Below, one piece after another: positions 2,629-27,147 of a stretch of 28,155 nucleotides of DNA (position 1 is its first letter; each line of letters begins with the position of its first letter). Made by a program: the position numbers and the translations under genes. The DNA comes from a virus (Duplodnaviria > Heunggongvirae > Uroviricota > Caudoviricetes): IMG/VR virus record IMGVR_UViG_2547132281_000009, positions 1 to 28,155 of that record. One strand, written 5' to 3'. The notes below the pieces were generated by a model, which was not told where the DNA came from, ran no database searches, and worked only from the letters and a program-made list of their open reading frames with translations.

Positions 2629-3282
2629 TCACTCTCCTTTGATGCGAATGCCAGCGTCAGACATCATATGCAGATACTCACCTGCATCCTGAACCCATTG
2701 ACCTCCAACCCCGTAATAGCGATGCGTAATGATGTCGATAGTTACTAACGGGTCTTGTTCGATTAACTGCCGCAGAAACTCTTCCAGGTCACCAGTGCAG
2801 TGCTTGATAACAGGAGTCTTCCCAGGATGGCGAACAACAAGAAACTGGTTTCCGTCTTCACGGACTTCGTTGCTTTCCAGTTTAGCAATACGCTTACTCC
2901 CATCCGAGATAACACCTTCGTAATACTCACGCTGCTCGTTGAGTTTTGATTTTGCTGTTTCAAGCTCAACACGCAGTTTCCCTACTGTTAGCGCAATATC
3001 CTCGTTCTCCTGGTCGCGAGATTTGATGTATTGCTGGTTTCTTTCCCGTTCATCCAGCAGCGCCTGCACTACTTCAGGGTTGAAAGCTGCGATATAACGA
3101 GCGTTGTTCTCTGCGTTGTTCTGTCCATCAAAGCCGGTCCATTTGATAACGTCTTCACATCGTTTATCACCAGGTGTATGCACCGCATATGTACCAGTAC
3201 CAGACGAAATAAATGCGACCCATTCACCCTGTGTTGCCAGTTGCGCCGCTTCACGCAGTGCCTGATAGTCAATCTTGTTCAT
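2629..3282 (-). CDS. Ead/Ea22-like early protein (217 aa)
   Basis: Central coiled-coil region and C-terminal ITHRYYGVGGQWVQ-type motif typical of Ead/Ea22-family proteins of lambdoid early-left regions (from memory). Confidence 0.55.
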   Translation of the reverse strand: MNKIDYQALREAAQLATQGEWVAFISSGTGTYAVHTPGDKRCEDVIKWTGFDGQNNAENNARYIAAFNPEVVQALLDERERNQQYIKSRDQENEDIALTVGKLRVELETAKSKLNEQREYYEGVISDGSKRIAKLESNEVREDGNQFLVVRHPGKTPVIKHCTGDLEEFLRQLIEQDPLVTIDIITHRYYGVGGQWVQDAGEYLHMMSDAGIRIKGE

Positions 3283-3283
3283 G

Positions 3284-3604
3284 TCACATCACCCTGAATC
3301 CGTTGCATTTACGTAAGAAATCGCAGATATAGCCCTTCATTTTTTCATGCCAATCTCGATCATTCCCATTGCACCAACCATCAGGTGGAGTCCAGTTTTC
3401 TATCAGAGCAGCCATTTTCTTTGCTTTCGCCGGAGTAGCTGTTGCGGTATCGCAGTAATGACGAGTGTCAACCAACGCATCCATACCATCGATATCAAGT
3501 ACGCAAAACCATGTGTGATTCGGAATTCCTACAGGTGGTATTTGTTGCCCACGTCGACGTTTATCAATAAGATATACACTCACTGCTTGCCTCCTTTGCG
3601 CCAC
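3284..3604 (-). CDS. Hypothetical protein (106 aa from a GTG start; alternative ATG at 3484 gives 66 aa)
   Basis: Long ORF in the early-left operon; start codon uncertain. Confidence 0.4.
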
Positions 3605-6381: not shown

Positions 6382-6624
6382 TTAACCAGCAATAAACTCT
6401 TCTGGTAATTTATCAACCAGTTGATGGCTTATTATCAGCCATTTGCCATCCTTCGTTTCGTATGCATATTTCTGGTCTTTTATCATCATGTGTTCGGCTA
6501 CTGCCTTAACTGCCTGTTCTGTGACATCTTCTTTTTTTCCTACCCACATTCCTTTTTCAGTGTTTAATGTTCCTTGAAAAATACGACCGCTTAATGGGCT
6601 TGCGCCCATGGTTTTAATTTTCAT
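6382..6624 (-). CDS. Hypothetical early protein (80 aa)
   Basis: ATG with AAGGTG Shine-Dalgarno; no recognisable motif. Confidence 0.5.
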   Translation of the reverse strand: MKIKTMGASPLSGRIFQGTLNTEKGMWVGKKEDVTEQAVKAVAEHMMIKDQKYAYETKDGKWLIISHQLVDKLPEEFIAG

Positions 6625-6651
6625 ATAGCACCTTAAAAATAAAGGCCACCA

Positions 6652-6903
6652 TCAGGCAGCCTTGTTGTAAATGTTGCAGGTATCAAGTAAGTAATTAGAT
6701 GGAGCGCCATAAATTATGAATTCATCGTTTGTCGGGTCCATCTCCATCTCTTGGCCTATTGCCATTCTTGCGTCAGTGTCATCAGCTGCGAAGCATAAAA
6801 CAGCCCACGCACCCATTGTTTTAAAAAGAACTGCAATTGGCTGTGGTTTTACTGAATTTGCGTTAGCGCGAAAATCATAAATCGCACTTTCATGAAATTC
6901 CAT
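6652..6903 (-). CDS. Hypothetical protein in the ral position (83 aa)
   Basis: ATG with GAGG Shine-Dalgarno, 3 nt after N stop; ends in NKAA like lambda Ral but otherwise unlike Ral. Confidence 0.5.
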   Translation of the reverse strand: MEFHESAIYDFRANANSVKPQPIAVLFKTMGAWAVLCFAADDTDARMAIGQEMEMDPTNDEFIIYGAPSNYLLDTCNIYNKAA

Positions 6904-6906
6904 ATA

Positions 6907-7239
6907 TCACCCCTCATACAGTGGTTTGCTGCCTAATTTCATTTTCTGGCGACCAACACAAGTCAACCCCATTTCACTACGTGGCTTGCTGTACCATGTG
7001 CGCTGATTCTTGCGCTCAATACGTTGCAGGTTGCTTTCAATCTGTTCGTGGTATTCAGCCAGCACTGTAAGGTCTATCGGATTCAGTGCGCTTTCTACTC
7101 GTGATTTCGGTTTGCGATTCAGCGAGAGAATAGGGCGGTTAACTGGTTTTGCGCTTACCCCAACCAACAGGGGATTTGCTGCTTTCCATTGAGCCTGTTT
7201 CTCTGCGCGACGTTCGCGGCGGCGTGTTTGTGCATCCAT
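6907..7239 (-). CDS. N: Antitermination protein N (lambda N-like, 110 aa)
   Basis: Translation begins MDAQTRRRERRAEKQAQWKAANPLLVGVSAKPVNRPILSLNRKPKSRVESALNPIDLTVLAEYH, matching lambda N including the arginine-rich motif; C-terminal ~25 aa differ. Confidence 0.9.
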   Translation of the reverse strand: MDAQTRRRERRAEKQAQWKAANPLLVGVSAKPVNRPILSLNRKPKSRVESALNPIDLTVLAEYHEQIESNLQRIERKNQRTWYSKPRSEMGLTCVGRQKMKLGSKPLYEG

Positions 7240-15206: not shown

Positions 15207-17374
15207 TGGCTAAAGCATGGAAAGATGTTATCGCTTCTCCACAGTATCAGGCGTTAACTGAAGAACAGAAAGCACAGGCTCAAGCGCAATATTTTGATGA
15301 GGTTGTTGCCCCTAAGGCTGGTGACAAATGGGCTGAAGCAAGAGATCAGTTTTATGCAGCATACCCTCCGCCTCAGCAGCAGAAAGAAGAACCATCATTG
15401 ATGCAACAAGCTGGCGATTGGCTCACTGGTGGTCAAAGTGCAGGGCAAATTGCAGAGCAGGCTGGTCGTGGTCTGGTAAACATACCATTTGACGTATTGC
15501 AGGGTGGCGCAAGTCTGATTAATGCAATCAGCCAGGGGCTTGGTGGCCCCAAGGTTTTGGACGATGTCTATCGTCCAGTAGATCGACCAACAGACCCTTA
15601 TGCGCAAGCTGGTGAAACAATTGGTGGGTATCTCCTGCCAATTGGCACAGCGGCAAAAGCTGCTGGAGCGCCAGCAAAGCTCGCTGGAGATATCGGTTCC
15701 GCAGGAAACATGATTGCAGGTTCTCTTGCTGATGCTGCAAATCAGGAGGGCGACTTTGCACAAAATGCTGCCATTAACGGTGGTATCAATATTGGTGCTC
15801 AGGGGATACTTTCTGGGGCTGGAAGGATCTTAACCTCTAAATCACCTCAAGTTCTTGGTGGCGGGGCAATAAATTCCGCTGCTGATGTTTCGAAAATGGC
15901 AAAGTCTGGTACAGGAAGAGAGATTATTGCCAGACAGTCAGCTAATGTGTCAGACGAAATAGCAAAAGCAGCAGATACTGCTGGAATAGATATCAACGCA
16001 TTAACTCCTGGCATGAGATCAGGTAGTCGTGGTCTTGCTCAGGCGGAGGGGATTCTGGCGTCAAAGCCCGGAATTACACAGGATGCACACACCAAAGCAT
16101 TCAGTGAAATAGAGTCGAAATTTAACTCAGCATTGGATGAGTTTGGGGCTGAAGCAGGAACTGCATCAGAAAAAAGTGCAGCCATAAAACAAAGGGTTTT
16201 GGCAAGTATTGATAAAATGAAAAATTCAGAAAAGGCCGCATGGGATAGCGTCCGCTCCACGATGCCTGACGCAAAGGCCAGAATGTCAAACCTGAACGCT
16301 ACAATTCAGGGTGATATTTTGGCTGGCATGCCGCTAACTCCTGAGATGAAACAATTCGCATCTGCTTATGCTAAAACTGGTAAAAAAGGAATCACGTTTG
16401 ATGCCATGAAGGCATGGCGAAGTAAACTTGCTGACGCAGAGCAGAAGTATATAAGGTCTGGTGAGGCAAATACGGCAAGGCGCATGGCTGAGCTTCGTGA
16501 TGCAGCAACGGAAGATATGCGCATAATGGCTCAAAATGGCGGTTTTCTTGATGACTGGCAAAAAGCTAATGATCTGTCAAAGGCAAGATTTACAGCACAA
16601 GAACAGGCTGAAGCAGCGTTTGGTAGAGACCTTGCAACTGATCAGTTGGTAACTAATGGATCTAAGGCGTTACAGGGTTCAGCAAAAAGTGGAACAGGTC
16701 AGTTCCATAAAATAATAAGCGCCCTACCTGAGTCGGAACGCGCGCCAGCAATTGCATCAATATTACAAGATGCAATGTCGCAAGGGGTACGCGGAGGTAA
16801 GTCTGAAGAGGCTGGAATTAAGCATATCGCGACTATTCTTACCCCACAAAACGTGAAGGCAATTAGTCGATATTCTCCAGAACTTGGCAGGATTACAAGT
16901 TCATACGGAGAACTTGCACGAGCAGCAACAAAGCCACTTCGATATGTTGAACAGACAGGGCGATCTATGCCAGCCATTAGCACTCTTGAGAATGGCCTTC
17001 ATCCAGTTTTAGAGAGCGCATTGTCTGGCGCTTTTAGAACTACTGGCACTATCGCAGGGTTCTCTGGAGGAGGCGTTATTGGAGCAATAGCGGGTGGCGC
17101 TGCAGGTGGGGCAATTGATGCAATGGCAAAAGGAGCGATAGCGAAATTATCCGCAACTAGAAGCGGTCGTTACGCTATTGAAAAGGCTGTTCAAGAGGCA
17201 ACAAAGGCAGTTAAGGTTGGGGCAAGTGATGGTGCATTAGCGGCGGCGGAACGCAGATTTATGGCAAATAAGGCCGCCGTAAAAGCAATACGCGAGGCAC
17301 TAGGAAACGAAGAGTTCCAGCGTTTAGCAAGAGCTGGAATTGTGGCATCGCTAAGCGGAATGGCACAGGAGTAA
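15206..17374 (+). CDS. P22 gp16-like ejection protein (722 aa)
   Basis: Position in the P22 order; last gene of the rightward structural block; longer than P22 gp16 as I recall it. Confidence 0.65.
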
Positions 17375-17831: not shown

Positions 17832-18380
17832 TTAGTGTAATCTCTGATCGTCTGAATCGTGTAAGAACTCCATGAGACTTTGAACCGGAATTGGTTCTAT
17901 TGATGATAATGTGAACACAGGAATATTGAGACTTTTGCAACGCTCAAACACTCCCTTATCATGAGTCCATACCTCGTCAGCATTAATTGCTCTTGCAATT
18001 GCTATTATTTGTCTGTCAAACTTAATTTTGTTTGCTGTACCTTCTGTGCTAATTTTCCTTAATTCTTTTAATGTTGGTATCGATGCGCATTCAATAGCAG
18101 CCAACTCATCAAATGATACAGTTTCGAAGCACGATAACGATTTGATAACATTCAGTTTTTCTTGTTGGTAATCTTTATGGATTCCAACTAAAAACTCCGC
18201 CAATACAGGAGTTGGAACGATGATTGTCCCGTTCTTGTTATCTATTCGATCAACAAGAGCTTCTGCTCTTCTTTTGGCATCTGGAATCTCAGAACCAAGT
18301 ATAGGGTCAGATAATCTATAATCGTGTTCTATATCTGATAGTAGGTATACCAGAATATTGGTATCTAAAATTACTCGCAA
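17832..18380 (-). CDS. PIN-domain nuclease-like protein (182 aa)
   Basis: N-terminal MRVILDTNILVYLL with the conserved Asp in the first strand, further acidic residues and a C-terminal WTHD motif, consistent with a PIN fold; TTG start with AGGAAG Shine-Dalgarno, overlapping the upstream stop by 10 nt. Confidence 0.7.
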   Translation of the reverse strand: MRVILDTNILVYLLSDIEHDYRLSDPILGSEIPDAKRRAEALVDRIDNKNGTIIVPTPVLAEFLVGIHKDYQQEKLNVIKSLSCFETVSFDELAAIECASIPTLKELRKISTEGTANKIKFDRQIIAIARAINADEVWTHDKGVFERCKSLNIPVFTLSSIEPIPVQSLMEFLHDSDDQRLH

Positions 18381-19090
18381 TTTATCTTCCTCAGAGTCCT
18401 AAGGATTGAATCAACATCGCGTTCCTCGGACCACTGATCTCCAGGAACTTGCTTGATAGCATTAATAGCATCCTTGAGTGATGATTTTTTGAGCAATACA
18501 AATGAAGTTATTTTTAGTTTCTTTAGCTCCCATTTGTTGTTCTTTTTTTCCCAGCACCCATCTCCTTTAACCCTAATATATTTGAATAGATGGGACCCAA
18601 GAGCTGCCGCCAAATCAGGGGTTGCCTCGCACTTGAATGTTTCACCGTTGGCTCCCTCAATACGCACAGGTATTGAGTTGTCTTTTCCGCCAACACTGTA
18701 TAGCCTTCCTTGAACTTCTGACGTTTTTGTTATGAGTAAAGGGATTGGCTCCTTTTTTACTCGCGGGAATGCGATAATGGTTGAGTGGTTTCGTCCGAGT
18801 AGTTTCGCTGAAAAACCATCATGCTCCAGTAAATTAACAATTTTTTGATACGCGGGTGATTTCTCTTTGGCTGAGAGAGAGGCCCTTGCTATGACAGCGT
18901 TATAACAAATATCATTATCGACCCATGCATTTAAGTCAGCCGATCCTTCACTTACACAGTCGAAGTGAACAGAATCTGCAGAACCGTATAGATCTACGAG
19001 AGCAGACATATACTTGACCAACTTAGCCATTGACAGCTGGCCAGGGGTGGTTCCGTCAAGTTTTAATGTGAGTCCATTGCTTTTTTTCAT
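18371..19090 (-). CDS. Unknown-family protein (239 aa), upstream partner of the PIN-domain gene
   Basis: ATG at 19090; stop overlaps the PIN start (operon); AT-rich; no recognisable motif, no P-loop, no transmembrane segment. Confidence 0.65.
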   Translation of the reverse strand: MKKSNGLTLKLDGTTPGQLSMAKLVKYMSALVDLYGSADSVHFDCVSEGSADLNAWVDNDICYNAVIARASLSAKEKSPAYQKIVNLLEHDGFSAKLLGRNHSTIIAFPRVKKEPIPLLITKTSEVQGRLYSVGGKDNSIPVRIEGANGETFKCEATPDLAAALGSHLFKYIRVKGDGCWEKKNNKWELKKLKITSFVLLKKSSLKDAINAIKQVPGDQWSEERDVDSILRTLRKINCE

Positions 19091-19139: not shown

Positions 19140-19394
19140 CTATAACTTACTTTTGCTATAAATATTTTTCAGCGTTTCAAAGACCATCTTCTTAACAACG
19201 TCAGATTGCTCATCCGCGACTCGCTCAGCTTCGTCTCGATAGCCTACAATTGATGATGGCTTTGAGAGAGCATCCTGAACGATTTGTAATAACTCAGAGT
19301 TCATTGACCTTCCGTTAGCCTCGGCTCTTAATTTCAATTTTTCTCTTACTTCCAAAGGCATACGGAAGTTAAAGTGCGGATCATCTCTAGCCAT
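19140..19394 (-). CDS. mnt: Mnt repressor (P22 Mnt-like, ribbon-helix-helix)
   Basis: MARDDPHFNFRMPLEVREKLKLRAEANGRSMNSELLQIVQDALSKPS... closely matches P22 Mnt as I recall it. Confidence 0.85.
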   Translation of the reverse strand: MARDDPHFNFRMPLEVREKLKLRAEANGRSMNSELLQIVQDALSKPSSIVGYRDEAERVADEQSDVVKKMVFETLKNIYSKSKL

Positions 19395-19417
19395 GCCATC
19401 ACTCCAAGTTAGTATCT

Positions 19418-19675
19418 CTAACTTTCGTCTTTATTGTTGCCATACATGCATTTCAACTTCTCAACATCATGTTCAAGATCTATCAATCGTGATGCTATAG
19501 TTGCAAGGTCTAGTGCTTGAATGTGTTTATTTTTTTCGGTCCATGCTTCAAGTGCAGCGACCATCTCAGCATTTAATGAACGAGAATTAGCCTCAGCCAG
19601 TTCAATAAGACGTTCCTTTATCTCTACAGGAAGCCTCAGATTCACTTGAGGGTTTTTGTACTTACGATCAGACAT
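19418..19675 (-). CDS. Second ribbon-helix-helix (Arc/Mnt-family) repressor-like protein (85 aa)
   Basis: NLRLPVEIKERLIELAEANSRSLNAEMVAAL is an RHH fold signature; probable ATG start at 19675 (the ORF-track GTG is at 19681). Confidence 0.6.
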   Translation of the reverse strand: MSDRKYKNPQVNLRLPVEIKERLIELAEANSRSLNAEMVAALEAWTEKNKHIQALDLATIASRLIDLEHDVEKLKCMYGNNKDES

Positions 19676-19721
19676 CGGCACACCCTGAATAATTTTTTAC
19701 CACAGGATATGTAGGTGTCTA

Positions 19722-19761
19722 TTGACTATCAATGCGTACCTAAATACTATGTATGCGTACC
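19722..19761 (+). promoter_or_regulatory. Pant-like promoter (TTGACT, 17 bp, TACTAT) with flanking direct repeats ATGCGTACC (19732-19740, 19753-19761), candidate Arc/Mnt operators
   Basis: Consensus-like -35/-10 with 17-bp spacing upstream of arc; a 9-bp direct repeat brackets the -10 at 21-bp periodicity. Confidence 0.5.
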
Positions 19762-19780
19762 ACATACAGCGGAGGATGCA

Positions 19781-19921
19781 ATGAAGGTAAAAACACTGCG
19801 TATGCCAGAGAAGTTAGAAAAAATCCTTGAAGAGAAAGCAAAGGAAGAGTGTCGATCGTTTAGCGCAGAAGTAATTAAACGGGTGCTGGACAGCTTGAAG
19901 AGAGAGGGGGTGATGGTATGA
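19781..19921 (+). CDS. arc: Arc-like ribbon-helix-helix repressor (46 aa)
   Basis: ATG at 19781 with GGAGGA Shine-Dalgarno; MKVKTLRMPEKLEKILEEKAKEECRSFSAEVIKRVLDSLKREG resembles P22 Arc; first gene of the arc-ant operon. Confidence 0.7.
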   Translation: MKVKTLRMPEKLEKILEEKAKEECRSFSAEVIKRVLDSLKREGVMV

Positions 19922-20121
19922 GTAAAGAATGTTGTTTCTGCGGCATTAGCGAATCAGACACTGATCAAACATACATTTACTCTAAAGAAACAGGTCGGAT
20001 GCTGTGTAGTGACTGCGTGTTGGACATCATAAGATACAAGCATCTTGGATGTTCTGCCAGCATTAGCAATATAGGTGAAGTATACGAAGGGAAAGATATA
20101 ACTGATAGAGCAGAAAGTTGA
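19918..20121 (+). CDS. Small Cys-rich (zinc-ribbon-like) protein, 67 aa, translationally coupled to arc
   Basis: ATG overlaps the arc TGA (ATGA); two CxxC pairs (CCFCG ... CSDC). Confidence 0.45.
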   Translation: MSKECCFCGISESDTDQTYIYSKETGRMLCSDCVLDIIRYKHLGCSASISNIGEVYEGKDITDRAES

Positions 20122-20184
20122 AGCCCCAACTGCTGGAACAGTCAGGGCTTCGGTATCGTAAAACCACGCATAGGAATTAACGAC

Positions 20185-20485
20185 ATGACGAGTGTAGCAA
20201 TTGCAGAACATACAATCAACGTTCCATTCCACGGAACAAATCTCTTTTTGGTCAGCATTAACAATGAACCTTACGTTCCTATGAAACCCGTTGTAGAAGG
20301 CATGGGTATGGTTTGGGCTGCTCAATTTGTTAAATTAAAACAGAGATTTGTCAAAGGTATTTCGGAAATCGAAATACCTTCTGCTGGCGGTAAACAGTTA
20401 ATGATATGCCTTGCCTTTCGTAAGTTTGCGGCTTGGCTTTCAAGCATTCAGCCAAACAAAGTCCGTCCTGAAATCCGCGACAAGG
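20185..20485 (+). pseudogene. ant: Antirepressor Ant, N-terminal part (AntA-type domain), interrupted by IS insertion
   Basis: AntA-like N-terminal domain (VPFHGTNLFLV...EPYVPMKPVVEGMGM); reading frame runs into the IS at 20486 and resumes in frame at 22928. Confidence 0.75.
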
Positions 20486-20556
20486 GTAAGCGTACAGCCT
20501 GAACCGTCTGGTCAGAATCTGACAAATTAGACAAAGTGGTGTCCACCAAATAAGTA

Positions 20557-20958
20557 GTGGGAACCAAAGTGTCAGATATGCAGAAAAATGTGACTCCCGG
20601 CAGGCGAAAAGGCTGCCCTAATTATCCTCCCGAATTTAAACAGCAGCTCGTTGCTGCCTCCTGTGAACCCGGGATATCCATCTCAAAACTTGCTCTTGAA
20701 AATGGCATTAACGCCAATCTGTTGTTCAAATGGCGACAACAATGGCGCGAGGGAAAGCTGCTATTACCTTCTTCAGAGAGCCCCCAGCTACTTCCTGTGA
20801 CTCTCGATGCAGCTGCCGAACAGCCAGAATCGCTCGCAGAGGACCCGGAAACCCTCAGTATCAGCTGTGAGGTAACGTTCCGGCACGGGACGCTCCGCTT
20901 CAATGGCAATGTCAGCGAAAAGCTCCTGACTCTGCTGATACAGGAACTGAAGCGATGA
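20557..20958 (+). CDS. IS66-family accessory protein TnpA (orf1)
   Basis: First ORF of the IS; typical IS66 orfA sequence. Confidence 0.8.
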   Translation: MGTKVSDMQKNVTPGRRKGCPNYPPEFKQQLVAASCEPGISISKLALENGINANLLFKWRQQWREGKLLLPSSESPQLLPVTLDAAAEQPESLAEDPETLSISCEVTFRHGTLRFNGNVSEKLLTLLIQELKR

Positions 20959-21302
20959 TCCCGTTACCTTCCGGGACCAAAATTTGGCTGGTTGCCGGTA
21001 TCACCGATATGAGAAATGGCTTCAACGGCCTGGCTGCGAAAGTACAAACGGCGCTGAAAGACGATCCCATGTCCGGCCATGTTTTCATTTTCCGGGGCCG
21101 CAGCGGCAGTCAGGTTAAACTGCTGTGGTCCACCGGTGACGGACTGTGCCTCCTGACCAAACGGCTGGAGCGTGGGCGCTTCGCCTGGCCGTCAGCCCGT
21201 GATGGCAAAGTGTTCCTTACGCAGGCGCAGCTGGCGATGCTGCTGGAAGGTATCGACTGGCGACAGCCCAAGCGGTTGCTGACCTCCCTGACCATGCTGT
21301 AA
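20955..21302 (+). CDS. IS66-family accessory protein TnpB (orf2)
   Basis: Overlaps the orf1 stop (ATGA); [31 protein letters not shown] is the conserved IS66 orf2 N-terminus. Confidence 0.85.
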
Positions 21303-21351
21303 ATCTCTTTATCCTGGTTGTCACAGAATAAGCCCGGTAAAATACGGGCTT

Positions 21352-22890
21352 ATGAACGACATCTCTTCTGACGACATCTTCCTGCTGAAACAGCGCCTGG
21401 CCGAACAGGAAGCGCTGATCCACGCCCTGCAGGAAAAGCTGAGCAACCGGGAGCGCGAAATAGACCATCTGCAGGCGCAGCTGGATAAACTCCGCCGGAT
21501 GAACTTCGGCAGTCGTTCCGAAAAAGTCTCCCGCCGTATCGCACAAATGGAAGCCGATCTGAACCGGCTTCAGAAAGAGAGCGATACGCTGACTGGTAGG
21601 GTGTATGACCCGGCTGTACAGCGTCCGTTGCGTCAGACCCGCACCCGTAAGCCGTTCCCTGAATCACTACCCCGTGACGAAAAGCGACTGTTGCCTGCGG
21701 CGCCGTGCTGCCCGAACTGCGGCGGTTCACTGAGCTATCTGGGCGAGGATACCGCCGAACAGCTGGAGTTGATGCGTAGTGCCTTCCGGGTTATCCGGAC
21801 GGTACGGGAAAAACATGCCTGTACTCAGTGCGATGCCATCGTGCAGGCACCTGCACCTTCGCGGCCCATCGAGCGGGGTATCGCCGGACCGGGGCTGCTG
21901 GCCCGCGTGCTGACCTCGAAGTATGCAGAGCACACCCCGCTGTATCGCCAGTCAGAAATATACGGCCGGCAAGGTGTGGAGCTGAGCCGTTCACTGCTGT
22001 CGGGCTGGGTGGATGCATGCTGCCGGCTGCTGTCTCCGCTGGAAGAGGCGCTTCATGGCTATGTCATGACTGACGGCAAACTCCATGCCGATGATACCCC
22101 GGTCCAGGTACTGCTGCCGGGTAATAAGAAGACGAAGACCGGGCGGTTGTGGGCGTATGTTCGTGATGACCGCAATGCCGGGTCAGCGTTGGCACCTGCA
22201 GTGTGGTTCGCTTACAGCCCGGACAGAAAAGGCATCCATCCGCAGACTCATCTTGCCTGCTTCAGCGGTGTGCTGCAAGCGGATGCGTACGCCGGGTTCA
22301 ACGAGCTGTATCGCAATGGTGGGATAACGGAAGCTGCCTGCTGGGCTCATGCCCGCCGAAAGATCCACGATGTGCACGTCCGCATCCCGTCAGCACTGAC
22401 GGAAGAAGCCCTGGAGCAGATCGGTCAGTTGTACGCCATAGAGGCGGATATAAGGGGAATGCCGGCAGAGCAGCGGCTTGCTGAACGTCAGCGAAAAACG
22501 AAACCGCTGTTGAAATCCCTGGAAAGCTGGTTGCGTGAAAAGATGAAAACCCTGTCGCGACACTCAGAACTGGCGAAAGCGTTCGCATACGCCCTGAACC
22601 AGTGGCCGGCGCTGACGTACTATGCAGATGATGGCTGGGCTGAGGCGGACAATAACATCGCTGAAAATGCGTTGCGGATGGTCAGTCTGGGCCGCAAAAA
22701 CTACCTGTTCTTCGGTTCGGATCATGGAGGAGAGCGGGGAGCGCTGCTGTACAGCCTGATCGGGACGTGCAAACTGAACGGAGTGGAGCCAGAAAGCTAC
22801 CTCCGCTATGTCCTTGACGTCATAGCCGACTGGCCGATAAACCGGGTCGGCGAACTGCTCCCCTGGCGCGTAGCACTGCCGACTGAATAA
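21352..22890 (+). CDS. IS66-family transposase TnpC (orf3), 512 aa
   Basis: N-terminal leucine-zipper region, CxxC...CxxC zinc motif and C-terminal DDE-type core characteristic of IS66 transposases. Confidence 0.9.
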
Positions 22891-22927
22891 CACATCCCCG
22901 TCAATACGGTTCTTGCTGCACGCTTAC

Positions 22928-23558
22928 CGACAAGGTAATCCAGTATCAGGAAGAGTGTGACGATGTGCTCTACGAGTACTGGACTAAAGGTCATGTAGTT
23001 AACCCACGCAAAGCTAAAAAAGCGTTGCCGGGTAAAATCACCACTGAACAGCAGGAAGCCATTAAACAACTCGTCATGAGTCGCGGTCAGTCTCTACCAA
23101 AAGAAAAACAGGCTAAGGCGATGATCACCATGTGGTCGTCACTGAAATCTCATTTTGGGTGTTCATACAAAGAAATCAGTGAGGAGCAGTTTACCGAAGC
23201 ACTGTCACTTGCTGCTCGCGTTCCGCTCGAAGGTGAGTTCATCGGCAAACAAGAGAAGAAAACCAACGAGCTTTCTGCAAAAGAAGCAAACAGCCTTGTA
23301 TGGTTATGGGATTATGCCAACCGCTCACAGGCATTATTCCGCGAACTGTATCCGGCGCTAAAACAAATTCAATCGAACTATTCCGGCAGATGTCATGACT
23401 GCGGTTATGAGTTCTCCCGTATTATCGATATGGCGAGAGATGTTTTAATCAACCACACACGAGATGTTGATATCAATGAGCCAGACGGACCAACGAATCT
23501 TTCCGCATGGATGAGACTTAAGAATAAAGAATTACCTCCTTCAGTACATAACTACTGA
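22928..23558 (+). pseudogene. ant: Antirepressor Ant, C-terminal part, downstream of the IS insertion
   Basis: In frame with the N-terminal part once the IS and one target-duplication copy are removed (2450 bp); combined length ~308 aa, similar to P22 Ant. Confidence 0.7.
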
Positions 23559-23658: not shown

Positions 23659-25662
23659 ATGACAGACATTACAGCCAATGTTGTAGTGAGCATGCCTTCG
23701 CAACTCTTTACTATGGCTCGTTCTTTTAAAGCCGTAGCTAATGGCAAAATTTATATCGGAAAAATTGACACTGATCCGGTAAATCCTGAAAACCAGATCC
23801 AGGTTTATGTAGAGAATGAAGACGGTTCTCACGTTCCTGTTTCGCAACCAATCATCATTAACGCTGCTGGTTACCCGGTATATAACGGGCAGATTGCCAA
23901 GTTCGTAACTGTGCAAGGTCATTCGATGGCTGTTTATGATGCATATGGTGCACAGCAGTTTTATTTTCCTAATGTGCTGAAGTATGATCCTGATCAGTTA
24001 TCTATAAAACTATCAAGTAATATTGGATACAAATACATTGGAATGGTAGAGAGCGCTAACTCCCTTAAAGATATACAAGGAATGTCGATATCTGATAAAT
24101 TATATTTAAAATCATACGTATCCGGACTCGAACTTGGTGGTGGGTTTGTTGTAGCTGTAGACAAGTCAATTGCAGTTGATAACGTAATGGTTTTAGAAGG
24201 TAACGGTGTAAATTGGAAGAGAATAAACCCAAGCCTTGAGTTTTCTGTATATGACGCTGGTTACAGCGGCGCTGGGGATATTGCATTATTTATTAATAAA
24301 ATAAACTCTCTAGGTTATGATTGCGTTGTCCCATGTAGTGGAGAATTCTCGTCTTTAATTGATATTGATTTCGCGAAGGGTGGGTTAAGAGGAACGAATA
24401 AATGCGTTTTAACTGAGATTAATGGGATATCAGGTGATTATGCAATTAGGTTAAGTAACTCTAATATTTCTTATGATAATAGGGATGAAATAAATGCAAC
24501 ATCAATTTTAGATGGCATATCTTTTAAGATGCTAGGATCTAAAAAGATTTTACTTGGAGGTATTGGCGCTGGTGAATTATCAGAGTTAAGAATAAGTAAT
24601 TCTTCATTCATATCATCTGCTGGAATTGAGTTTCTTGATAATTCATATAGAATTTTATTTGACAAAGTAACAATATCAAGATGTCTAAACAACACAATTA
24701 TATTTAATTCTCCATCAAACTCAGGCGAGGTAATGACATTTAATAATTGTTGGGTTGTTGATAATGGAGGTCCATTGACAATTAGAAATGGTCAATTTAT
24801 TTTTAACTGTTGCTCTATGCCAGCAGGTAAGAAAGAAGGTTATTTTGATTCTACTGTTTTTATTGAAGATAACGCAACCGTTGTTTACTCAAGTGGAAAT
24901 ATTGAGTTTCAGCCAGGTCAAAGCTTTGTGGCGTTCTCTGCATCTGGAAGCACAAGAATAAGCATTAAAGATACAACGCTACTTACTCCCTCTGGATATA
25001 GTTCAGTTCCGTTTGTTGTAAATGATGATTCAGTACTTTCATTAACAAATTGCTCATTGCCTTTATTTGACCAAATGGATTTGGCGACAGGATCAGCAAC
25101 TAGACAGGTAGTTGGAGGTAATAGTAAAAAAATAATGTCATATGGATGCTATCCACGATCTGGATTTATAACAACTCAGTGGGATAAAGGGAACATAGTT
25201 AGTCCATACATAAATTCGCTATCAAATGGAAGTGGACAGTTTTTAAACTACTCTAACTGGAGCCTTCAACAAACTGGTTCAGGTGTTGTTACAGCAGGAA
25301 CGGATTCTGATGTTCCAAATGATATTATGTTTTCCAGGTCTTTGTATGTAGCAATACCATCTATAGGAGCATCTGCAAAATTTTATCAGGAGTGCTCAGA
25401 CTGCTCACCAGGACGATATTTCCAGTTAGGTTTTTGGGCTAAGAATCAAGTGACAACAATCTCTGGTATTGAGTTTTTTGATAAAGAAGGGAACTCTGTT
25501 CAGGGAAAAGCAACATTTACAATTCCACTAGGATCCACATGGAATTTCTACGCATTAATAGATATTGTTCCTCCTGGAGCAAGCAAGGTTAGGATTGATT
25601 TTGATGTTTCCGGTGAAGCAGGCTCTCTTCATTTGCATAATGTTATTTATGGGCTGATTTGA
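23659..25662 (+). CDS. Tailspike protein: P22 gp9-like N-terminal head-binding domain fused to a divergent beta-helix receptor-binding domain (667 aa)
   Basis: N-terminus [59 protein letters not shown]...[13 protein letters not shown]...LKYDPDQ matches the P22 tailspike head-binding domain; the remainder is AT-rich and not P22-like. Confidence 0.9.
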
Positions 25663-25753: not shown

Positions 25754-26911
25754 TCACTCCACCTTTTCATCAAGCCAGTCCGCCCACCACTGCATCATTT
25801 CTCTGCGCTTATCGAGATACTGAGCATGGTTGTAAATACCGCGCACAGATCCGCCGTTGGCATGTGCCAGCTGCACTTCAATAGCGTCAGCAGGCCATTC
25901 GTGCTCGTTCATAATCGTGCTGAATTCATGCCTGAATCCGTGACCGCTTTCCAGACCTTCATAGCCGATTTGTTTGATCACAAGCAATACCGCGTTCTCG
26001 CAGATTGGCTTCTTCTTATCGTTGCGCCCGGCAAAAACAAACTCTGATACTGGTTTGGTGATTGAGCTTAGCGTAGTGAGAAGTTCAACCACCTGGTCTG
26101 ACATAGGAACAACATGAATCTTGCGGCCCTTCATCACACTGGCGTCGATGGTGATAATCCTGTTTTCAAAATCGACGTTCTTCCATTGCATGGAACGAAG
26201 CTCTTTCGTTCTTAGGGCTGTGTAGCGTAAAACTTTGGTCGCAATGAGCGATACGATGCTTCCTGAAAATGTTGCCAGTGCTTTGTTGAATGCAGGGATC
26301 TGGTCTGCTGGAAGAAACGGGAAGTTCTTCTTGCGGTATCCTTTCATGGCGTCTGCAAGGTCAGGTGCCGGGTTATATTTAGCCCTTCCGGTGACAATAG
26401 CGTAACGGAAAACCTCGCCGCATCTTCTGCGGGCTTTGTTGGCTCGCTCCATTGCACCGCGATCTTCAAATCTGCGGATTACTTCCAACAGTTGCATCGG
26501 CTCAATATCCTGAATTTCAAGGCTGCCGATGATGGGTAAAATGTCGTCATCAAACATTTTGGCAAGTTCAGTTGCATAGCCTACTGACCAGACTTGCTTC
26601 TTGTGCTCGTACCATTCCTTGTAAATCGCACTAAATGAATTGTTGTTAGACGAAGCCTTTTTCGCTTTTACCGGATCGATGCCAACCGAGATGTCTTTCC
26701 TCGCGGTCCATGCTTTATCTCTTGCCTCCTGCAAAGTCATAAGCGGATATTTTCCTACGGTCAGGATTTTCTCCTTACCGTCAATCTTGTAGCGAAGCTG
26801 CCATACCTTTTTCCCGGATACAGGGACATAAAGGTACAGGCCATTACCATCGAGAAGGCGGTATGGTTTTTCTTTCGGCTTTGCTGCTTCAATCTGCTTA
26901 ACGGTGAGCAT
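25754..26911 (-). CDS. Tyrosine integrase, P4 family (IntS-like)
   Basis: N-terminus MLTVKQIEAAKPKEKPYRLLDGNGLYLYV and C-terminal catalytic region (HGFRHEF...LAHANGGSVRGIYNHAQY) match CPS-53 IntS-type integrases; an upstream in-frame ATG at 26947 is an alternative start. Confidence 0.95.
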   Translation of the reverse strand: MLTVKQIEAAKPKEKPYRLLDGNGLYLYVPVSGKKVWQLRYKIDGKEKILTVGKYPLMTLQEARDKAWTARKDISVGIDPVKAKKASSNNNSFSAIYKEWYEHKKQVWSVGYATELAKMFDDDILPIIGSLEIQDIEPMQLLEVIRRFEDRGAMERANKARRRCGEVFRYAIVTGRAKYNPAPDLADAMKGYRKKNFPFLPADQIPAFNKALATFSGSIVSLIATKVLRYTALRTKELRSMQWKNVDFENRIITIDASVMKGRKIHVVPMSDQVVELLTTLSSITKPVSEFVFAGRNDKKKPICENAVLLVIKQIGYEGLESGHGFRHEFSTIMNEHEWPADAIEVQLAHANGGSVRGIYNHAQYLDKRREMMQWWADWLDEKVE

Positions 26912-27070
26912 GGGTAAAAATCCGGTGGGTAAAATTATTTTATCCACTTTTTACCCGTCATGGAGTGCGGCTGTCAACGATCTGACGCGAACCATGACGA
27001 ACCGTGAATATACGGAAGGATTGATATTCAGGGGATTTTGCGGACTGGTACGGATGGGAGCGAACTGATA

Positions 27071-27147
27071 AATGGTGTCCCCTGCAGGAATCGAACCTGC
27101 AATTAGCCCTTAGGAGGGGCTCGTTATATCCATTTAACTAAGAGGAC
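27071..27147 (-). tRNA. argW: tRNA-Arg (anticodon CCT), argW; its 3' end forms the attR core
   Basis: Minus-strand sequence GTCCTCT...CTCCTAA...GGTTCGATTCCTGCAGGGGACACCA with acceptor-stem pairing, CCT anticodon and encoded CCA; ends may be off by 1-2 nt. Confidence 0.9.

Follow-up and report, generated by a model that had tools for sequence, protein, structure and literature searches.

Organization of the immI locus

The window analyzed here, a 28,155-nucleotide (28-kb) stretch of virus DNA (IMG/VR record IMGVR_UViG_2547132281_000009), contains the right end of a P22-like (Lederbergvirus-type) prophage, including its immI region, in which a P22-type mnt gene lies in tandem behind a second repressor gene of a different type. 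The immI region of P22, with its Arc and Mnt proteins, is a textbook model of ribbon-helix-helix (RHH) repressors and of secondary immunity. Positions 19140-19921 carry three RHH genes of the Arc/Mnt family, compared with only two in P22, as the initial annotation of this DNA had stated; it had also recognized the Mnt homologue at 19140-19394 and a second Arc/Mnt-family gene at 19418-19675, on the same strand and divergent from arc, and both identifications hold up, the first through matches to Pfam Arc and Repressor_Mnt and 82% identity to P22 Mnt (residues 1-13 being identical), the second through a Pfam Arc match. The locus resembles P22 immI in lying between a homologue of gene 16 and the tailspike gene, in having mnt-type and arc-type RHH genes that diverge from overlapping promoters, together with a P22-type mnt, and in carrying the sar RNA and an ant gene that encodes both a P22_AR_N and a P22_AR_C domain. 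The genes and control elements of the region are as follows (coordinates, strand, description).

19140-19394, minus: mnt1, P22-type Mnt repressor gene, a promoterless putative second cistron; 84 amino acids; Pfam Arc (5.7e-27) and Repressor_Mnt (4.8e-13)
19395-19417, minus: 23-nt junction, the mnt1 leader with a GGAG ribosome-binding site, delimited by comparison with P22 and CUS-3
19418-19675, minus: mnt2, type-2 Mnt-like RHH repressor; 85 amino acids; Pfam Arc (3.3e-10)
19709-19704 (-10, TATCCT) and 19732-19727 (-35, TTGATA), 17 nt apart, minus: candidate promoter Pmnt2, from a consensus scan
19712-19721 (core): site A, a degenerate third repeat and 10-bp near-palindrome, TAGGTGTCTA, in the Pmnt2 spacer, 21 bp upstream of site B
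19722-19727 (TTGACT) and 19745-19750 (TACTAT), 17 nt apart, plus: Pant, the arc2-ant promoter, from a consensus scan
19725-19740, plus: site B, operator candidate in the Pant spacer, with the core ATGCGTACC at 19732-19740
19746-19768, plus: site C, operator candidate over the expected Pant start, with the core ATGCGTACC at 19753-19761
19781-19921, plus: arc2, Arc-like RHH protein and first gene of the ant operon; 46 amino acids; Pfam Arc (3e-8)

The minus-strand mnt2 and the plus-strand arc2 diverge from 105 bp of intergenic DNA, and arc2, whose ATG begins at 19781 and not at 19782, lies directly 3' of Pant behind a GGAGG ribosome-binding site. Mnt2 and Mnt1 both belong to PHROG 795 (the Mnt2 match, 7.3e-26, spans residues 1-82), and the best solved-structure match of Mnt2 is Mnt (1mnt, E 1.9e-5); at 33% identity to Mnt1, however, the presumed acting Mnt of this locus departs well from that of P22, and it has no match to the C-terminal Repressor_Mnt domain (PF11423), which is found in Mnt1 alone. 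A single-sequence AlphaFold model of Mnt2, with a predicted template modeling score of 0.33 and the two RHH helices merged, contains a C-terminal helix at residues 57-79, and several Mnt2 alleles terminate in ...LKTMYGK, resembling Mnt-type C-termini; on account of the helix in this low-confidence model, Mnt2 is probably a tetramer. DNA contacts in Arc follow a Gln9, Asn11, Arg13 pattern. The corresponding Q-x-N-x-R pattern is carried by the Mnt2 strand (PQVNLRLP), which is aligned to the Arc strand in the structure match, and not by that of Arc2 (KVKTLRMP). The Mnt2 strand PQVNLRL shows no change across 45 protein variants, and the Arc2 strand KVKTLRMP is nearly invariant, the sole differing Arc2 being that of Photorhabdus, with EPVSVRMP.

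A conserved control region unlike that of P22

The initial annotation described the arc promoter as TTGACT-17-TACTAT, with its -10 bracketed by a pair of ATGCGTACC repeats 21 bp apart, and all of these elements are present. The 9-mer occurs exactly twice in the whole window, at 19732-19740 and 19753-19761, and an exact 9-mer repeat within 40 bp arose in only 112 of 20000 shuffles of the intergenic region (0.56%). The direct repeat extends to 16 nt (19725-19740 and 19746-19761, 88% identical at the same spacing), and with the degenerate site A it forms a series whose centers, 19716.5, 19737.5 and 19758.5, are separated by steps of exactly 21 bp. Site C in addition sits in a 19-bp imperfect palindrome (19750-19768), at the position that Omnt occupies in P22, just 3' of the -10. 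A 10-bp site is found four bases past each -35, ATGCGTACCT for Pant and, in the minus-strand reading, ATAGACACCT for Pmnt2, and the copy in site C equals the Pant site over nine bases. The two promoters stand back to back, their -35 hexamers overlapping by one base, and are symmetric about 19727.

Conservation of this DNA is extensive. Among 38 distinct intergenic variants the segment 19708-19768 is almost unchanged and the repeats are conserved: Pant is nearly invariant, site B is kept in all variants but for one A/G position, the Pmnt2 -35 does not vary, and its -10 retains the pattern TAnnnT in most of the diverged relatives. The same core recurs in Photorhabdus, Xenorhabdus, Arsenophonus and Chimaeribacter loci whose Mnt2 and Arc2 proteins are only 48-60% and 45-52% identical to those of the window, and as judged from these alignments the segment constitutes a strong phylogenetic footprint. 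Site A is degenerate in the E. coli lineage, but its counterpart in the Photorhabdus and Xenorhabdus relatives is GTGCGTACC or GGTACC (GTGCGTACC in Photorhabdus). One position within site A, 19717, is G in the CUS-3 lineage, including the window, and A in all 34 other intergenic variants (GTAGGTGTC vs GTAGGTATC), a substitution that could weaken or retune the site. Assignment of the sites to Mnt2 or Arc2 by covariation was attempted and given up, the sites and both beta-strands being too invariant and the Photorhabdus Arc2 change having no clear counterpart in the sites.

Comparison with the P22 immI operators, which had been suggested as a check, revealed that the layouts differ. In P22 the operators are two unlike palindromes, Oarc and Omnt, and direct repeats are absent, whereas the window has 21-bp-phased direct repeats in promoter/operator DNA that is unrelated to that of P22 and lacks both operators; and the P22 promoters are fully interleaved, whereas those of the window are placed back to back.

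mnt2 belongs to a complete type-2 module

Relatives of the locus indicate which of the two mnt genes is the additional one. In the roughly 92 fetched loci with an Mnt2 relative, mnt2 stands alone in 70, and arc2 is its conserved partner. Phage SEN22 (KT630648) shares with the window an mnt2-type gene (85% amino acid identity), the promoter/operator core, an arc2-type gene before it and a transposon-interrupted ant; unlike the window it has no second mnt and no cysteine-rich open reading frame (ORF; see below), and a terminator directly follows its mnt2-type gene, which is thus the only gene at the mnt position. Because mnt2 is solo, with the same control DNA, in SEN22 and in these 70 loci, the comparison identifies mnt2, the intergenic region and arc2 as a control module for immI that is complete and of a non-P22 kind, here called type 2 (P22 being type 1). 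The gene at 19418-19675, which the initial annotation took to be the extra RHH gene, is therefore the standard cognate partner of this control region, and by the same comparison the extra gene is the P22-like mnt1. That annotation was right that the operator architecture differs from P22, but its link between the modification and an extra protein falls away: since mnt2 is the standard cognate partner, the layout is the normal one for another immI type.

The same tandem is present in phage CUS-3 (CP000711; King et al. 2007), which resembles the window at 97% identity in the mnt2-mnt1 pair, the junction, the intergenic region, arc2, the cysteine-rich ORF and sar; both of its tandem genes are annotated 'mnt', and the same prophage is found in K1/ST95-type E. 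coli. It differs in that the 3' part of mnt1 and the downstream cargo are AF46-like in the window, and in that the ant gene of the window carries an IS66-family insertion. In the CUS-3 GenBank record the arc2/cysteine-rich ORF/sar stretch (6505-6986 of CP000711, our locus L001) is labelled 'bsq2 boundary sequence' and has no genes, whereas RefSeq annotates three Arc-family genes, arc2 among them as an Arc family protein. On account of the 'boundary sequence' feature, inside which arc2 lies unannotated, Villafane et al. (2008) reported that CUS-3 apparently lacks arc (PMC2629481), a statement that appears to be wrong.

mnt1 is joined to the module without its operators

The P22-type mnt of the window, unlike its counterpart in P22, has neither a promoter nor an operator of its own. 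When aligned with P22 (X01916), homology at mnt1 ceases about 20 nt upstream of its ATG, and the place that Pmnt, Oarc, Pant and Omnt hold in P22 is taken in the window by the 3' end of mnt2, whose stop codon is 23 nt from the mnt1 ATG. This 23-nt junction is the same in all tandem loci apart from single-base variants, and no promoter- or terminator-like site was found between mnt2 and mnt1 on the minus strand. All solo type-1 loci, by comparison, carry AGGTCCAC(C/G)GTGGACCT (Oarc/Omnt) upstream of mnt; one of them, the E. coli AF46 prophage, encodes a solo Mnt that adjoins P22-like Oarc/Omnt and is 100% identical in amino acid sequence to Mnt1 of the window.

Neither P22 Omnt (AGGTCCACGGTGGACCT) nor Oarc (ATGATAGAAGCACTCTACTAT) had a match with three or fewer mismatches in the window or in the 40-kb CUS-3 genome. 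The best Omnt match in the window has 5 mismatches and lies within unrelated genes; in the intergenic region the best Omnt match has 7 mismatches in 16 positions and the best Oarc match has 10 mismatches. By sequence, then, Mnt1 is a repressor without a cis target, because Omnt is absent while the N-terminus with which Mnt1 would recognize it equals that of P22 Mnt. A main model with Mnt1 acting in cis was rejected, there being no close match to P22 Omnt or Oarc in the window, the intergenic region or the CUS-3 genome. In a broader form of cis control all three RHH proteins would jointly govern the arc/ant promoter, for example with Mnt1 on one repeat or in mixed oligomers with Mnt2, and the arrangement itself invites this idea: all three genes flank one intergenic region, three sites are available for three proteins, and the end of site C, ACCAC, faintly resembles the Omnt half-site TCCAC. 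It is nevertheless very improbable, because the three sites are unchanged in the majority of loci, which have no mnt1; the recognition residues of Mnt1 are those of P22 Mnt, for which the intergenic region offers only the distant match given above; and the C-terminal domains differ between the two Mnt-type proteins.

The ant operon and neighboring genes

Several further features surround the RHH genes.

ends at 17374: gene-16 homologue
17832-19090, minus: 239-amino-acid ORF and overlapping PIN-domain ORF, 3' of mnt1; PHROG families of unknown function
19918-20121, plus: cysteine-rich ORF (CxxC...CxxC), 67 amino acids, its ATG overlapping the arc2 stop (ATGA); PHROG 7150 (1.7e-49)
20116-20183, minus: sar antisense RNA, between arc2 and ant; Rfam RF00262, 81.2 bits (gathering score 43), E 8.6e-16
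20185-20485, plus: N-terminal part of ant; Pfam P22_AR_N (9.9e-28)
20486-22928, plus: IS66-family insertion sequence splitting ant, with HTH_Tnp_1, TnpB_IS66 and DDE_Tnp_IS66 ORFs and terminal inverted repeats
22929-23558, plus: C-terminal part of ant; Pfam P22_AR_C (1.1e-28)
23659-25662: tailspike gene
25754-26947: integrase gene, adjoining tRNA-Arg(CCT)
27073-27147, minus: tRNA-Arg(CCT)

The insertion in ant is bounded by an 8-bp target duplication, CGACAAGG, at 20478-20485 and 22929-22936. Between arc2 and ant the sar RNA is fully conserved, and the cysteine-rich ORF, which some type-2 loci have and others lack, is optional cargo; it is unannotated in CUS-3 and in RefSeq E. coli SF-173, and an unrelated 73-amino-acid ORF takes its place in the AF46 prophage. 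No Pfam or PADLOC match was found for it, and a resemblance to ClpX-type zinc-binding domains was considered and set aside, as there was no Pfam match and only weak RING-like PDB matches (E 0.007).

Downstream of mnt1, no terminator- or promoter-like site was found before the 239-amino-acid and PIN-domain ORFs, which in the lysogen may be transcribed from the mnt promoter and are possible toxin or defense cargo; a known defense system was considered and rejected for want of a PADLOC match. RHH proteins are frequent as antitoxins. It could hence be imagined that mnt1 is kept to regulate or express this cargo, for example by serving as antitoxin-like partner in a toxin module, and the open passage from mnt1 into the cargo, along with the same linkage in the AF46 prophage, fits such a role. 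We give the idea hardly any credence: mnt1-type genes precede many unrelated cargos (sieA in P22, a YafO-type module in CUS-3, and others) or a terminator, Mnt1 is a full Mnt homologue with Mnt recognition residues, and the cargo proteins, as said, have no PADLOC match.

Spread and origin of the tandem

Public records already contain the arrangement (CUS-3, 2007), though it is uncharacterized, and searches of the literature for mnt genes in tandem or duplicate turned up nothing relevant. Of 5426 complete E. coli genomes, 145 have the mnt2 module, 215 have mnt1-type genes and 44 have the tandem junction, numbers that make type-1 immI commoner than type 2 in this species. Whether relatives share the arrangement, with a known function, was a point on which the initial annotation had made its reading depend; CUS-3 and these 44 genomes do share it, and no function is known for it.

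The window is itself recombinant: its left arm, including the 3' part of mnt1, matches the AF46 prophage, which has the same cargo downstream of mnt1, and from the 5' part of mnt1 rightwards it matches CUS-3. More generally, the tandem mnt1 alleles (10 or 11 by DNA, one tandem locus having been mislabelled as solo) are highly divergent, with a synonymous substitution rate (dS) above 1 in some pairs. The junction probably formed once and was followed by recombination within mnt1, because these divergent alleles match solo alleles past the first approximately 40 nt. All are intact, the 13 N-terminal residues are nearly invariant (the exceptions are D4N and M12I, in one allele each), and the ratio of nonsynonymous to synonymous rates (dN/dS) in the mnt1 RHH domain is 0.01-0.16. 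As a separate observation, mnt2 is frameshifted in two viral contigs (L086, 3001-3257, and L089, 471-717), and in L086 the downstream mnt1 is intact.

Stacking extends beyond the 2>1 pair (types are written with the promoter-proximal gene first). Three RHH genes in a row, of types 3>2>1, occupy 2630-3536 of the locus L015 (IMGVR_UViG_2541047931_000005), a 3>2 pair is present in L061, and the other stacks found were 2>4, 2>5, 2>6 and 2>7. In each stack the promoter-proximal gene matches the adjoining control region and arc type, and type 1 is promoter-proximal in none. The control region of L015 represents a third immI type, with two copies of CTACACCGTG 21 bp apart, plus a palindromic copy, around a TTGACT-16-TAGTAT promoter; its Mnt3 and Arc3 have the beta-strand PLGIRIP in common. 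The 3>2 junction keeps only a 17-nt mnt2 leader.

Proposed function of the stacked repressors

We interpret the locus as a mosaic immI in which mnt2 and arc2 control Pant through the 21-bp-phased sites, while mnt1 is co-transcribed, has no role in cis and targets Pant/Omnt of type-1 phages in trans, a reading to which we assign a probability of roughly 60%. Pant would drive arc2, the cysteine-rich ORF and ant, and Pmnt2 would drive mnt2. In the lysogen, Mnt represses ant and keeps it off (PMC7380047; PMC11016777); by analogy with P22, Mnt2 would be the prophage maintenance repressor that shuts Pant, probably by blocking it from the identical sites B and C, and Arc2 would be an early autoregulator, with Arc2 and/or Mnt2 occupying site A for autoregulation. 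The position and synteny of mnt2, and the joint conservation of its beta-strand and the sites, are the grounds for giving Mnt2 this part. The sar RNA would be kept as an antisense brake on ant. Recombination would have placed the type-2 module straight onto the mnt1 leader, so that the ribosome-binding site was kept and the promoter and both P22 operators were lost, leaving mnt1 as the second cistron of the mnt2 transcript.

Other type-1 phages are the only plausible target of Mnt1, because its N-terminus equals that of P22 Mnt and the operator is absent from its own phage. Expressed from Pmnt2, Mnt1 would silence Pant/Omnt of superinfecting or co-resident type-1 phages. The P22 Ant protein acts on phages other than P22, inactivating the repressors of L, lambda and 21 (PMC3121763), and Mnt1 may thus extend the immI immunity of the lysogen to a second specificity and shield the prophage repressor from a foreign antirepressor. 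A precedent for a Mnt-type repressor kept without a cis target is given by the orphan mnt genes, without arc or ant, of ST64T, ST104 and phage L (PMC2629481; PMC8022706); these differ in standing alone, presumably with their own promoter, whereas mnt1 of the window is a putative downstream cistron behind a working mnt of another type.

Several points weigh against this interpretation. Within the window ant is already dead, and the cis circuit is left without a target; since the gene is split by the IS66-family element, only trans effects of the repressors could matter here. No mnt transcripts were detected in Kapi1, which is a related P22-like lysogen (PMC12922286). The Mnt2 and Arc2 strands differ (QVNLRL vs VKTLRM), yet sites B and C are identical, and the allocation of sites A, B and C between the two proteins is guesswork. 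The 44 E. coli genomes also say less than their number implies: all 20 full-length matches among those listed have the same 97.2% identity to the query, and most of the E. coli tandem copies appear from this to be near-identical CUS-3-like prophages. Finally, each tandem mnt1 allele matches a solo allele past its first approximately 40 nt, which suggests that the tandem has repeatedly recombined inside mnt1 and has therefore received fresh intact copies; intactness and low dN/dS, considered as proof of selection, were consequently dropped as not decisive, the tandem alleles being recombinants of solo alleles.

It is this allele pattern that makes a neutral history plausible and the main rival to a function in trans. 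In such a history mnt1 is a passenger, its conserved 5' end serving to link type-2 and type-1 phages in recombination, and intact copies are dragged in, to decay eventually. The recombinant make-up of the window, with its AF46-like left arm and CUS-3-like right arm, agrees with this, as do the rapid flux for which the region is known (PMC2629481) and a few nonconservative changes among the tandem alleles (S30L in L014, D4N in L015). We consider it unlikely on the whole, given that tandem mnt1 is never disrupted whereas mnt2 is frameshifted in two loci, that a ribosome-binding site is kept at two independent junction types (2>1 and 3>2), that at least four other Mnt types are also found stacked, and that orphan mnt genes without ant persist in the ST64T- and L-type phages cited above.

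Beyond the proposed trans action of Mnt1 itself, the recurrence of stacks allows a wider and more tentative reading, for which we would claim somewhat less than even odds: the stacked promoterless Mnt genes (2>1, 3>2>1, 2>4, 2>5) may form a modular anti-antirepressor array, in which repressors of rival immI types are collected behind one promoter, and the spacing of the type-2 and type-3 sites by two helical turns may imply a binding geometry of the RHH tetramer unlike that of Arc and Mnt. If this were true, the array would stop superinfecting phages of the collected types from switching on Ant and inducing the prophage.

Implications for P22-like phages

Among natural P22-like phages, immI comes in several heterotypic specificities; at least three types of control region were found here, and the non-P22 types employ an operator geometry that differs from that of P22. 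The analysis also corrects the published view of CUS-3 as a phage without an arc gene. Recombination at the mnt leader, as we infer it from the junctions, stacks repressors of unlike specificity in one putative transcript. Should the orphan repressors act in trans, immI would be a battleground of related prophages, on which broad-acting antirepressors are set against collections of Mnt repressors.

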